Origin: a virus
Taxonomy: Duplodnaviria > Heunggongvirae > Uroviricota > Caudoviricetes
IMG/VR virus record: IMGVR_UViG_2778261532_000008
DNA length: 44,392 bases
Strand: one strand, 5' to 3'
Below the pieces are notes generated by a model. The model saw only the letters and a program-made list of their open reading frames with translations, made no database searches and was not told where the DNA came from. This document shows, one piece after another, positions 12,228 through 41,300 of the stretch. Numbering within the stretch: position 1 is the first letter of the stretch; the number at the start of each line of letters is the position of its first letter. The translations under genes and the position numbers were made by a program.

Positions 12228-12244
12228 GTTATAATTAGAGCAAT
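12228..12244 (-). promoter_or_regulatory. weak C1-operator-like half-match upstream of the DUF3800 cassette
   Basis: Reverse complement ATTGCTCTAATTATAAC matches 12/17 of the P1 C1 operator consensus ATTGCTCTAATAAATTT. Confidence 0.25.
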
Positions 12245-12247
12245 CTA

Positions 12248-13093
12248 TCACCCTCTGAATCCTACCGGTATACCCCATTGTTCGTTATCTTTATTTTTGG
12301 CTAATACCGCATTAAGTGCTTCGTTTACCGTCATGCAATGCGGTAGATTATCGAAGTTTGATATCCAGCCAATATCAGGAGAACGCTTGTTCTTCAGGTA
12401 AGCATATTTCCGCGCTGCCGCCTCTACTTTCTGCTTGAACTCATGTTTTTGAGCGCGTTTTTTGGATAACCGCAGATTGTCAGCCTTTGCTTTTGCCTCA
12501 GCGATCCATGAAGTCAGTTTTTTGAGGCTGGTCGTTCCGGTACCGCCGGAAACTGATCTTTTTGTTTTTTTAATTTGTGACTTCTTATTCTTTATTGCCA
12601 CGTCATCCTGACAGGGGGAGGGGGTATCATTTTGACATGGGGGTGTGGATAAAAAATCAAATAAAGCCAATGTCTTAGCGAGAACAGCTTTAACCTTGGT
12701 TGCGGCTGAAGAGATCTTTAATTTGCTTTCAATCAGCGCGTTTTTAGCGTGTTGTGCGAAGGCCAAAAAGGATGGTGTAAACCGGTACAGGTTAGCGCGG
12801 CGTTCACGGTGATCGCCGATAACAATCTCTACCGACAGGATTCCTTTGTTTACAGCTTCACGGAATGCGCGAACGACGGTTGATTGGCTATAACCAGTTT
12901 CTGCCGCGATCATGCGGTGAGGCTTGTGAATGAAGTATTCACTGGTTGTTGCCGCGAGATTTGCACATTGCGACAGGATATGCCCGGCGCTACGGGATAG
13001 ACCGGAGTGTGTTACAAAGCAGGCCAATTCATAGCCAGAAAAAGTAAAATCGCTCATCGTTATACAGCTCAGGAAAGTGACTTTAGCCAGCAT
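12248..13093 (-). CDS. repL: lytic replication protein RepL (contains oriL)
   Basis: 281-aa ORF directly downstream of kilA in a C1-operator-controlled operon, as in P1; size matches P1 RepL as recalled. Confidence 0.75.
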   Translation of the reverse strand: MLAKVTFLSCITMSDFTFSGYELACFVTHSGLSRSAGHILSQCANLAATTSEYFIHKPHRMIAAETGYSQSTVVRAFREAVNKGILSVEIVIGDHRERRANLYRFTPSFLAFAQHAKNALIESKLKISSAATKVKAVLAKTLALFDFLSTPPCQNDTPSPCQDDVAIKNKKSQIKKTKRSVSGGTGTTSLKKLTSWIAEAKAKADNLRLSKKRAQKHEFKQKVEAAARKYAYLKNKRSPDIGWISNFDNLPHCMTVNEALNAVLAKNKDNEQWGIPVGFRG

Positions 13094-13122
13094 TACAATG
13101 CTGGTGGTTCTTACTACGTCTG

Positions 13123-13923
13123 TTAGCGCGTAGCCGCGACAGGTACCAGCACACCAGCATCAAGCAATCGCTTCATTAGCCACTGCTGACCTTTGCCGGT
13201 TATACGAGTCGTGAAAGAAATCCTGCTTCCGTTGCTTGTATCGATCACGGTTTCTTTGAGGGTGAAGTACCCACGGGATATGTATTCTTGTTTGGGGACG
13301 TTCCTGCGTTCACCGGTTGCGATCAGAATTCCGTTATCACGCAACCAGGTGAAGAGATAGTTTTGGCCCAGGCCGAGCACTTTGGCATAGTTGCCGATTA
13401 GAACCCCGCTGGCGGTAGCAACGCGTTCGGCGAATTCGACTTTAGGCGCATCCATAAGCATTTTTTGCTCCAGCCGTTGCTTTTGCTCTGCCAGGTCGGC
13501 AGCCAAACGGAGAGCTTCAGGGAGACTCTGCGGAATAGCAGGTTGCAATCTTCCGGCTCGATAGTCGATAAATGTCTGGTTTACCTTCAGCCGAAACGCG
13601 GGAGAAATCCAGCCTGCGTACTCCACAGCGAGCAATTCATGGGCAAACGTACCGCCGCCACGGCCTTCGAACGAAACTATGCAATTCTGCATAGTTTCTT
13701 TTTCAAGCTCTTCGATGAGCTGTTTGGCTGACAGCGTTCTTAGCCATTGAGCTGGCGCTTTATGGGCACCGAGTCCGCTCGCTCTGTGTAGAGCATTAAG
13801 GTTGTAACGGCCAGCGTGGTCGGTCGTAATTTCAACACCACAAATAACAGGCAGAGTGGTTGAAGGATCGACATTTTGATGAAGGTTTGATATATTCATA
13901 TCCGCATTGAATGTTTGCTGCAT
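13123..13923 (-). CDS. kilA: KilA (KilA-N domain N-terminus, ANT/KilA-C domain C-terminus)
   Basis: 266-aa ORF; C-terminal ~130 residues are clearly homologous to the C-terminus of the upstream Ant ORF (shared PxxLPEALRLAA...GKGQQWL block); operon position after ant. Confidence 0.75.
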   Translation of the reverse strand: MQQTFNADMNISNLHQNVDPSTTLPVICGVEITTDHAGRYNLNALHRASGLGAHKAPAQWLRTLSAKQLIEELEKETMQNCIVSFEGRGGGTFAHELLAVEYAGWISPAFRLKVNQTFIDYRAGRLQPAIPQSLPEALRLAADLAEQKQRLEQKMLMDAPKVEFAERVATASGVLIGNYAKVLGLGQNYLFTWLRDNGILIATGERRNVPKQEYISRGYFTLKETVIDTSNGSRISFTTRITGKGQQWLMKRLLDAGVLVPVAATR

Positions 13924-13993
13924 TTTTTCTCCAAATTTGCATCAACCTTCAATCACCAGCTCGAAATGGTGATTCTTTGTACTTAGAAAACGA

Positions 13994-14010
13994 AATTTAT
14001 TAGAGCAAAT
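13994..14010 (-). promoter_or_regulatory. C1 repressor operator (Op53-like) at kilA-repL promoter
   Basis: Reverse complement TTTGCTCTAATAAATTT matches 16/17 of consensus ATTGCTCTAATAAATTT; located between ant and kilA. Confidence 0.65.
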
Positions 14011-14086
14011 TTTTCTAACTCGATCCAGATCGGGTTGGATGATCTGCTCAGAAACCTGCCAGTTTGCTGGCAGGTTTTTTCTTTTG

Positions 14087-39108: not shown

Positions 39109-39894
39109 ATCGCTTTCCACTTCTTCCGTGGTGTTTTCTTGCAGTTCTGTTAATGCAGCACGACATAGGTTCCGGGCATTGGCTATAGCCACACTTTTGA
39201 CTTCATCCGTCATCGTGCAGGTAATGTACTGATCGAGTTCTTCAGCGTGGATGATGCTTTTGCCAATCAGAAACTGTATTTGCCAGAGCAGATCGGCATC
39301 CATAATCAGAATTTCTGCCGGGCCTTCAGGGCCAGCCGGGAAGGAAACATAAGACTGTTTGCCCAGGCCGATAACTCGACAACTTGCTTCAAGAATTGCG
39401 CGCTTGAGGTCTGACTTTGTAACTGAAACAGGTTGATTTTCACCTGCGATTACGCCGTTGACATGGATGTGGAAAGGCATGTAGCTTGAAATTCGCTCTA
39501 CTTTCCATACGCCAGCAAGCGATCCTTCATGCAGCACAATGGGGGTAACCGCGAGTTTCATCTCACCATATAACTGCTGGCAGATGGCTGGATTGCTGAA
39601 TACATCCAAAGGTTCACACTCAAACAGCGGCGCAATCTGCATGAGGTCCATCATGGTCATACTAGGGGTACGAGCAGTAATGAATCTGCGCATGCCAGTA
39701 TCCATTGTGCGCCAGATAGCTACACCATGCTTTTTGCTCACTTCTTCAGTAAAGCCAAGGTGGCACATGATGGTTTTTTCGATAGCCAGATCAGAGATAG
39801 AAACCTTTTCGCCAGGTACACCATCATTATTGATGGTCACTTCGACACTCTGGCCATTACGCAGGCGGTATTGAATTGCTTTAGTATTTTCCAC
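39106..39894 (-). CDS. hypothetical protein (P1 isaB position)
   Basis: 262-aa ORF; no motif recognised; 6 bp from upstream gene, no IS1 between them. Confidence 0.5.
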   Translation of the reverse strand: MENTKAIQYRLRNGQSVEVTINNDGVPGEKVSISDLAIEKTIMCHLGFTEEVSKKHGVAIWRTMDTGMRRFITARTPSMTMMDLMQIAPLFECEPLDVFSNPAICQQLYGEMKLAVTPIVLHEGSLAGVWKVERISSYMPFHIHVNGVIAGENQPVSVTKSDLKRAILEASCRVIGLGKQSYVSFPAGPEGPAEILIMDADLLWQIQFLIGKSIIHAEELDQYITCTMTDEVKSVAIANARNLCRAALTELQENTTEEVESD

Positions 39895-39900
39895 GTTAAA

Positions 39901-40578
39901 TCACTCCACTACAAACCAGTCACATGCCAGTAAGTCGCATACAGAAGGCACCCACGGAACAACTACACCTTGTGCATTTTTTAAGGCGAAATAAGCACCA
40001 TACGGAACGAGGTCGCCGGGGAAATATCCCTTAATGGCTTCCATTCGTGCCGGGTACTGTCCTTCAGGAACCAGCCAGCAGAATTGGTTTTCGCCGTTCC
40101 ACCCGCGTCGAGCAACTTTCTTGCCATCCTTCAGCCACATCAGCGCGTCAGAAAAGTCGGCTGCTTCAAGGTCGATTTCTTCTTGTGTGGTAATGATGCC
40201 ACTGGCAGCAATAGTTACGTCCCTGGCTGTAATGAATGTCACCCCATTGTGACCTTCAATACTGAGCGATACCCCATTTTCGAAGAAGTCGTTAGTCCGA
40301 CTAAAGCCTTCTTCAAATGTTTTTTCTGGTGAATAGGACAGAGATCCGTCCTCATAAGCGACCAGATATCCGCCAATTTCTGGTCGGTGTTTTTGCAAAA
40401 ACATTTTATCAACATGGACTTTTACCCCTTCTGGCTCAACGACTTCGATGTTGCAAAAAAGGACCACATCCATTAGGGCGATAATTTCGATATCTTTGAT
40501 TTTTGAGGCGCGAACTGTTTTATGGCTTTTGTATTTTGGAAGTGCCGTCAAAAGCTCTTTCGTTGTCATGTTATTCAT
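39901..40578 (-). CDS. two-domain protein with C-terminal DUF2829 (Tad2-like) domain; ORF could extend to 40746 but ATG 40578 has the best Shine-Dalgarno
   Basis: C-terminal block ALMWLKDGKKVARRGWNGENQFCWLVPEG...GVVVPWVPSVCDLLACDWFVVE matches my recollection of the DUF2829 signature; GAGGAAAG before ATG 40578. Confidence 0.55.
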   Translation of the reverse strand: MNNMTTKELLTALPKYKSHKTVRASKIKDIEIIALMDVVLFCNIEVVEPEGVKVHVDKMFLQKHRPEIGGYLVAYEDGSLSYSPEKTFEEGFSRTNDFFENGVSLSIEGHNGVTFITARDVTIAASGIITTQEEIDLEAADFSDALMWLKDGKKVARRGWNGENQFCWLVPEGQYPARMEAIKGYFPGDLVPYGAYFALKNAQGVVVPWVPSVCDLLACDWFVVE

Positions 40579-40775
40579 AGTCTTTCCTCTGCTTAAAACC
40601 TGATGTATTGCGCCTTCAGGTGGGTCAGGAATGTTTTCCCACCAGCGAAAGCAATATCTCGGGGTGTTCTTTTCGTGAAAAGCGCGTGCCATTGCCAACT
40701 TTGGCGTTTGTTTGCGAGTTCGTGCTTTTGTCGGCGTCTGGACCACCGCTTTTCTTTCAGTCGTTTTTTACACAT

Positions 40776-41264
40776 TCAAAACGGAATATCGTCGTCAAAG
40801 TCCATTTGAGGTTCGTTATTGGCGTTGCTCTGAGGTTTACCGCCACCACTGTATTGCTGGTGGTTTTGAGGTTGGTTTGATTGCCCCCAGCCATTTGAGG
40901 ACTGTGAATCGTCACGGCGAGCGCCGATCATTTGCATGGTGCCGCCCTGGCTGACGATAATTTCCGTCGTGTAACGTTCTACACCGGCGTCATCTGTCCA
41001 CTTACGGGTTTTAAGTTTCCCTTCGATGTAGACCTGAGAACCTTTTCGTAAATACTCACTCGCAATTTCAGCAAGTTTTCCGAACAAAACGACTTTATGC
41101 CATTCTGTTTGCTCTTTCTGTTGGCCCGTTTGCTTGTCGCGCCATGATTCATTCGTTGCGATGCTGAGTCTTCCGACCGCGCCGCCATTTGGTATATACC
41201 TGATCTCCGGGTCTTGCCCCAGGGTACCAATCAGGATGACTTTGTTTACACCGCGTTGTGCCAC
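40776..41264 (-). CDS. ssb: single-stranded DNA-binding protein
   Basis: OB-fold N-terminus highly similar to E. coli SSB ([46 protein letters not shown]), Gly/Gln-rich linker and acidic tail DFDDDIPF. Confidence 0.95.
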
Positions 41265-41283
41265 TTATCTTACCTAATAAAAT

Positions 41284-41300
41284 AAATTAATTAGAGCAAT
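41284..41300 (-). promoter_or_regulatory. C1 repressor operator-like site between ssb and lyz
   Basis: Reverse complement ATTGCTCTAATTAATTT matches 16/17 of consensus. Confidence 0.55.

Follow-up and report, generated by a model that had tools for sequence, protein, structure and literature searches.

The virus record IMGVR_UViG_2778261532_000008 of the IMG/VR collection (Caudoviricetes) was analyzed over its whole stretch of 44,392 nucleotides, here called the window. It carries genes known from the phages P1 and P7, among them the lytic replicon kilA-repL, the antirepressor operon c4-icd-ant, the gene ssb beside lyz and, behind repL, a cassette with a DUF3800 gene. A 17-bp sequence resembling an operator of the phage repressor C1 lies upstream of each of these four units. 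In P1, C1 binds 22 operators scattered over the genome, with a consensus of the ATTGCTCTAATAAATTT type (PMC8546580). The four sites of the window, with their agreement to this consensus and their score against a position weight matrix (PWM) of P1 operators, are:

12228-12244, minus strand: Op55/Orlf (P7 Op(rap)), weak predicted C1 operator, ATTGCTCTAATTATAAC, 12/17, 15.6 bits
13993-14009, minus strand: Op53/OrepL (P7 Op(rep)), TTTGCTCTAATAAATTT, 16/17, 21.8 bits
15658-15674, minus strand: Op51/Oc4 in its P7 allele, TCTGCTCTAATAAATTT, 15/17, 18.6 bits
41284-41300, minus strand: Op21/Ossb, ATTGCTCTAATTAATTT, 16/17, 25.2 bits

Four sites of the C1 regulon

When up to three mismatches to ATTGCTCTAATAAATTT were allowed, exactly three matches were found in the window, all on the minus strand (13993-14009, 15658-15674 and 41284-41300), while 0.26 would be expected and none of 100 shuffled sequences reached three. 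The four sites are also the only occurrences of the 9-mer core TGCTCTAAT in the window, against an expectation of 0.36, and again none of 100 shuffles reached four. For the PWM, 20 monovalent C1 operators were taken from the P1 record AF234172, and only the 16 located beyond the segment with homology to the window entered the matrix, so that the test is not circular. Op21 (25.15 bits), Op53 (21.82), Op51 (18.64) and Op55 (15.60) took ranks one to four. The training sites themselves range from 7.6 to 27.6 bits, with Op55 at the low end, and under the null model the best score in 44 kb is 13.7 ± 2.65 bits. The next hit, at 294-310 with 13.5 bits, was rejected, as it falls within coding sequence and scores at noise level. 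All four sites are confined to the 8.4% of the window without long open reading frames (ORFs) and are oriented as their downstream genes.

Comparison with annotated records gave the same picture. Each of the four sites matches, base for base, a feature annotated as protein_bind (phage repressor C1) in P1 and/or P7, and sites plus flanks equal P7 Op(c4), Op(rep) and Op(rap) and P1 Ossb without a single change. Within the corresponding P1 segment (~19.4-63.8 kb), only these four C1 operators are annotated; the complete known operator set of this segment was recovered, and nothing beyond it. We therefore consider it very probable, from sequence identity and position, that the four 17-mers are orthologues of the catalogued P1/P7 C1 operators Op53/OrepL, Op51/Oc4, Op21/Ossb and Op55/Orlf (Op(rap)) in a P7-like plasmid prophage.

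The original prediction had listed the same four motif matches (16/17, 15/17, 16/17 and 12/17), and all of them exist on the minus strand. Its first site is real, but was placed at 13994-14010, one base away from the correct 13993-14009. The weight matrix scan that it proposed ranks its four sites highest in the window, and its interpretation of the motifs as C1 operators is borne out, since each is the positional orthologue of an annotated P1/P7 operator. It went astray in setting the sites at ssb and at the DUF3800 cassette outside the classic immunity targets. These are the annotated Op21/Ossb and Op55/Orlf (Op(rap)) and, as they already stand as C1 operators in the P1/P7 records, they fall within the known C1 regulon. 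The finding is thus already known: what it describes is the P1/P7 C1 regulon, without any departure from the P7/P1 annotation at the four sites.

The origin of the window is consistent with this. Between positions 10000 and 18000 its nearest match is Escherichia phage JL22 (99.2% identity), ahead of phages P7 (97.2%) and P1 (96.4%); relative to the P1 map the orientation is reversed. The part from 38500 to 44392 corresponds to the pro-lyz-ssb-isaA region of P1. Judged by these alignments, the whole window corresponds to about 19.4-63.8 kb of P1 and is a segment of a P7-like plasmid prophage (punavirus). The C1 proteins of the closest complete relatives, JL22 and P7, are 98.9 and 98.6% identical to P1 C1, respectively.

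Two observations concern the P1 record AF234172 itself. The Omat/Op2b feature at 2628-2645 is annotated on the minus strand with a length of 18 nt. The operator-like sequence at this position is CATGCACTAATAAATAT on the plus strand (2628-2644, 20.9 bits), and the strand given in the record looks wrong. Furthermore, two plus-strand positions without operator annotation, neither of them in the part covered by the window, score above Op55: ATTGCTATAATTATTTG at 1485-1501 (17.8 bits), between cre and c8, and ATTGCCCTAATGTATTT at 17166-17182 (16.7 bits), at the 5' end of darB near LPpro.

Op53, Op51 and Op21 beside promoters annotated in P1

The genes and RNA features downstream of the three stronger sites are arranged as follows:

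12248-13093, minus strand: repL, lytic replication initiator, 272/281 amino acids (aa) identical to P1 and P7 RepL
13123-13923, minus strand: kilA, 264/266 aa identical to P1 KilA
14087-15342, minus strand: icd-ant1/ant2, antirepressor operon downstream of c4, from ORFs and P1/P7 annotation
15390-15475, minus strand: C4 antisense RNA (immI), Rfam RF01695, 68.4 bits
15544-15597: a1b1 targets of C4, RF03163
40776-41264, minus strand: ssb, 161/162 aa identical to P1 Ssb

Op53 is located 69 nt upstream of kilA and, by homology to the P1 annotation, at the promoter PkilA/P53. Together with its flanks it is identical to P1 49810-49826 and P7 52527-52543, both annotated as protein_bind for C1, and its place upstream of kilA is the same in all three elements. 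The P1 record gives OrepL as the former Op53, controlling the expression of kilA and repL, and annotates oriL within repL. C1 at Op53 represses P53 and hence kilA-repL (PMC9948254). The site was found in 77 of 80 P1-like loci scanned.

Op51 lies upstream of c4-icd-ant, with the C4 RNA and its a1b1 targets positioned downstream of it. It is identical to the annotated P7 Op(c4) and, by homology to the P1 annotation, is situated at the promoter P2c4/P51a; the P1 record lists Oc4 as the former Op51. P1 itself reads AATGCTCTAATAAATTT at this site, so that positions 1-3 are AAT in P1, whereas they are TCT in the window, as in the P7-type immI. In the P1-like loci (numbered L007-L086), the Op51 equivalent retains TGCTCTAAT in nearly all alleles, and its first two to three bases and its flanks vary with the immI allele (AAT, TCT, CCT, AGT, GTT/ATT...TTATTTT). 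The P7-type genes upf50.5 and upf50.0 are found at 15956-17020 (plus strand), in the place of P1 simABC. The former is predicted to encode a lipoprotein with a weak, sub-threshold TraT-like match, the latter a DUF5384 protein. Taken with the TCT allele of Op51, both genes show the element to be P7-like in immI.

Op21 precedes the ssb start codon by 19 nt and lies in the intergenic region between the divergent genes ssb and lyz. Site and flanks are identical to P1 21015-21031 (Ossb, former Op21; AF234172), and across the P1 records AF234172, AF125376 and GenBank M25412 the identity extends over the 17-mer and at least 25 nt on each side. AF125376 labels the 17-mer "operator 21 (Op21)", a C1 binding site, beside the promoter of ssb-P1, and the P1 annotation puts Ossb between promoter P2ssb and the ssb start. 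This position between promoter and start codon, within the divergent lyz-ssb region, is shared by P1 and the window. A scan for consensus promoters and terminators around Op21 found none, at a threshold above the strength of the P1-annotated promoters.

The gene that follows ssb differs from that of P1. While P1 carries isaA there, the window encodes, 30 nt downstream of ssb (39901-40746, minus strand), an apparent fusion of an IsaA N-terminus with a Tad2-like part. Its first ~65 residues are IsaA-like (57/65 identical to P1), the remainder is different, and the gene ends in a Pfam Tad2-like domain (Thoeris anti-defence 2-like, formerly DUF2829; E=5.7e-23). Among P1-like elements, the isaA locus is known to vary (PMC6906374). 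Since no minus-strand terminator separates the Tad2-like gene from ssb, it probably belongs to the unit controlled by C1 at Op21. Further along the window, at 42371-43579 (plus strand), a gene for a 402-aa IS605-family OrfB/TnpB (PF01385, E=3e-32; Cas12f1-like TNB and HTH_OrfB domains) sits between the lysis genes lydD/lydE and pro, where P1 has no such gene.

How the three operators would act follows the P1 model. C1, encoded in immC outside the window, binds asymmetric 17-bp sites scattered over the genome. In the lysogen, C1 at Op53 would silence P53 and keep the lytic replicon kilA-repL off, C1 at Op51 would silence P51 and with it the antirepressor operon c4-icd-ant, and C1 at Op21, which is situated after the -10 box but before the start codon, would silence Pr21 and thereby ssb. 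At all three sites, C1 at or beside the promoter would be expected to block initiation. C1 binding at Op21, Op51 and Op53 rests on annotation and literature.

Op55, the rlfA-rlfB cassette and the cargo hotspot behind repL

The fourth site, Op55, is found 3 nt behind the end of repL, and rlfA starts 148 nt further on. The features downstream of it are:

12106-12134, minus strand: counterpart of PrlfA, predicted promoter, TTGCAA-17-GACAAT, 8/12 to consensus, mapped from P1 51685-51713
11375-12079, minus strand: rlfA (P7 rapA), 232/234 aa identical to P1 RlfA, Pfam DUF3800 E=7.6e-14, PADLOC PDC-M04A E=2.2e-95
10911-11375, minus strand: rlfB (P7 rapB), 152/154 aa identical to P1 RlfB, PADLOC PDC-M04B E=1.1e-51

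By these identities, the DUF3800 cassette is the rlfA-rlfB pair of P1 and the rapA-rapB pair of P7. Both genes are adjacent and overlap, and the pair fits the PADLOC candidate defence system PDC-M04. A Pfam search with RlfB gave no match. The earlier label of a candidate defence pair is thus fair, as the genes match PDC-M04A/B, with the system itself being a candidate only. In the P1 annotation, rlfA and rlfB are described as "possibly associated with lytic replication"; in a CRISPR interference screen, rlfA, rlfB and ssb were non-essential for P1 lytic growth (PMC10695390).

The first 11 bases of Op55 agree perfectly with the consensus, while its right half is degenerate. The site is identical to P1 51575-51591, annotated there as monovalent C1-controlled operator Orlf (former Op55), and to P7 Op(rap). 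Compared with P7, the 17-mer, its position and the whole 171-nt intergenic region are the same, without any difference; compared with P1, 17-mer and position are the same, with differences confined to the 3-nt spacer and some bases of the intergenic region. An inverted second half-site beside Op55, which would make it bivalent like Op72ab or Op99ab, was considered and rejected: the best candidate by eye reached 9/17, and none reached 7.9 bits in the PWM. PrlfA is the sole promoter predicted for rlfA by the P1 annotators and lies ~94 nt downstream of Op55. No intrinsic terminator was found between repL and rlfA in a scan of 11950-12450.

To place Op55 in its wider context, the region behind repL was compared among 79 P1-like IMG/VR contigs with a locatable repL end. 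In these contigs, repL and bplB are 607 to 3627 bp apart and the gene content differs greatly, in line with the known hypervariable "region 5" represented by this interval (PMC9603915, PMC6906374). The left junction of the hotspot falls exactly after the 11-nt Op55 core ATTGCTCTAAT, which is kept in 77 of the 79 contigs. Fourteen contigs continue with TATAAC and carry rlfAB (one of them with a C-to-T change in the core), whereas in 63 the core is followed by CTGGAGTCACC..., with CTGGAG replacing the right half, and by other cargo. The remaining two lack the core; their RepL is 93% identical. A near-complete Op55 is specific to the rlfAB-bearing elements.

The alternative cargo includes an 81-aa membrane protein with a Hok-like peptide, a 210-aa protein, a ParA-like protein, insertion sequence elements and a 343-aa protein. 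In several loci (L017, L011, L044 and others), a hydrophobic peptide of 51 aa (MKQQKAMLIALIVICLTVIVTALVTRKDLCEVRIRTGQTE...) is encoded ~335-633 nt past the repL stop codon, and we take it to resemble toxins of the Hok/Gef family. No C1 site of at least 14 bits in the PWM was found in the alternative cargos downstream of repL. Additional high-scoring 17-mers in those loci were rejected as cargo operators, as they turned out to be variants of Op51 that belong to other types of immI.

Retention of the core is only weak evidence for selection, because no more than two to three independent junction haplotypes underlie it. A RepL search of genome contigs returned only three loci, and RepL proteins in plasmids and phages are either at least 83-90% identical or less than 60% identical. 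The more divergent phages 813R1 and 673R5 show the same two junction haplotypes, and the collections searched hold no relatives divergent enough to test selection on Op55.

Possible roles of Op55 and possible C1 control of cargo

For the three strong sites, nothing speaks in favor of chance AT-rich matches unrelated to C1; for Op55 alone, the marginal score could be taken that way. The outcome of the shuffles, for three consensus matches as for four cores, and the exact identity to annotated operators at orthologous P1/P7 positions leave this explanation with a practically negligible probability for the set as a whole. Any function of Op55, in contrast, we infer. Its score equals that of the annotated P1 operator Op99c (15.4 bits), the right half of which is just as degenerate; C1 binding at Op55 is therefore plausible. 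Occlusion of a promoter by C1 at this site is unlikely, since no promoter overlaps it and the predicted PrlfA is ~94 nt away. If bound, Op55 might be either a roadblock or a looping partner of Op53, and most likely a roadblock or auxiliary site at which read-through from the kilA-repL unit into rlfAB would halt.

One possibility is that Op55, though weak, functions as a C1 site, moves together with rlfAB (DUF3800/PDC-M04) and keeps these genes off in the lysogen, and that P1-like phage-plasmids more generally park exchangeable accessory cargo at the 3' ends of early operons under C1 repression. We regard this as doubtful, and several results weigh against a C1-dependent role of the site. By chance alone, about 0.23 hits at 15.6 bits are to be expected in a 44-kb window, and the two P1 positions without operator annotation (1485-1501 and 17166-17182) score higher. 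No sigma-70 consensus promoter overlapping Op55 was found in the 11950-12450 scan, at a threshold that lies above the strength of the P1-annotated promoters, PrlfA included. The majority 17-mer ATTGCTCTAATCTGGAG of the 63 contigs with other cargo reaches only 3.8 bits, so most relatives manage without a full Op55. For the C1 reading of all four sites, it is a reservation that immC (P1 93-94 kb) and c1 lie outside the window. A literature search, which did not extend to the original P1 genome and operator papers, found no primary data on C1 binding to Op55. The earlier proposal that C1 controls ssb and possibly the DUF3800 pair agrees with the existing annotation, but actual control of rlfAB through the weak Op55, which overlaps no promoter, is unproven.

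Much of this could also be explained if Op55 were a non-functional relic or a chance half-match, with the three strong sites as the only real operators and rlfAB transcribed by read-through from P53 and/or from its own weak promoter, independently of C1 at Op55. We consider this quite possible. It would account for the low score, for the better scores at the two P1 positions, for the distance to PrlfA and for a cargo junction directly behind the 11-nt core, with a right half replaced in 63 and a core missing in two of the 79 relatives; likewise, with so few junction haplotypes, the conservation of the core says little on selection. However, Op55 belongs to the small non-coding fraction of the window and is aligned with transcription, which lowers the chance expectation to ~0.01 (a post hoc estimate). 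Moreover, Op99c shows that an annotated operator may be equally degenerate, and the authors of both the P1 and the P7 record annotated a C1-controlled operator here, with Op55 as its earlier name. Another conceivable role has nothing to do with rlfAB: as distal partner of Op53, Op55 could close a C1 loop of ~1.75 kb that brackets kilA-repL and oriL and tightens the silencing of the lytic replicon. Op53 (14009) and Op55 (12228) do flank kilA-repL exactly, with oriL in repL, and a site that overlaps no promoter would suit such a role. C1-mediated looping between operators was reportedly described for the immC region by Heinzel and colleagues (J Biol Chem, 1994). Against this stands the loss of the right half of Op55 from most P1-like elements, in which Op53 and kilA-repL are nevertheless retained. 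The loop therefore cannot be essential, and we judge it unlikely.

A comparable geometry is known from mycobacteriophage L5, in which many asymmetric sites for the repressor gp71, the stoperators, are dispersed in the genome. Some of them are placed inside or between the genes of operons, distant from promoters and oriented with transcription. Op55 resembles them in its placement away from a promoter and its alignment with transcription, whereas repressor families and motifs of the two phages are unrelated, and no P1 operator is known to act as a roadblock. In one report, P1 is cited as a comparable system of multiple asymmetric operators (PMC1934351).

The matter of C1 occupation of Op55 predates the present analysis. 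Its remaining interest is practical, as rlfAB now also carries a candidate-defence label (PDC-M04): C1 repression would decide whether the pair could protect the lysogen or has a role in lytic growth only. The 11-bp operator core as the mark of the left edge of the cargo hotspot is a small, testable addition to what was known. If Op55 indeed kept its cargo under C1 control, the window would hold two examples of cargo behind a C1-repressed early operon, rlfAB behind kilA-repL and, behind ssb, the Tad2-like anti-defence gene. Cargo of this kind would come into play only after induction or infection and would not serve the lysogen.

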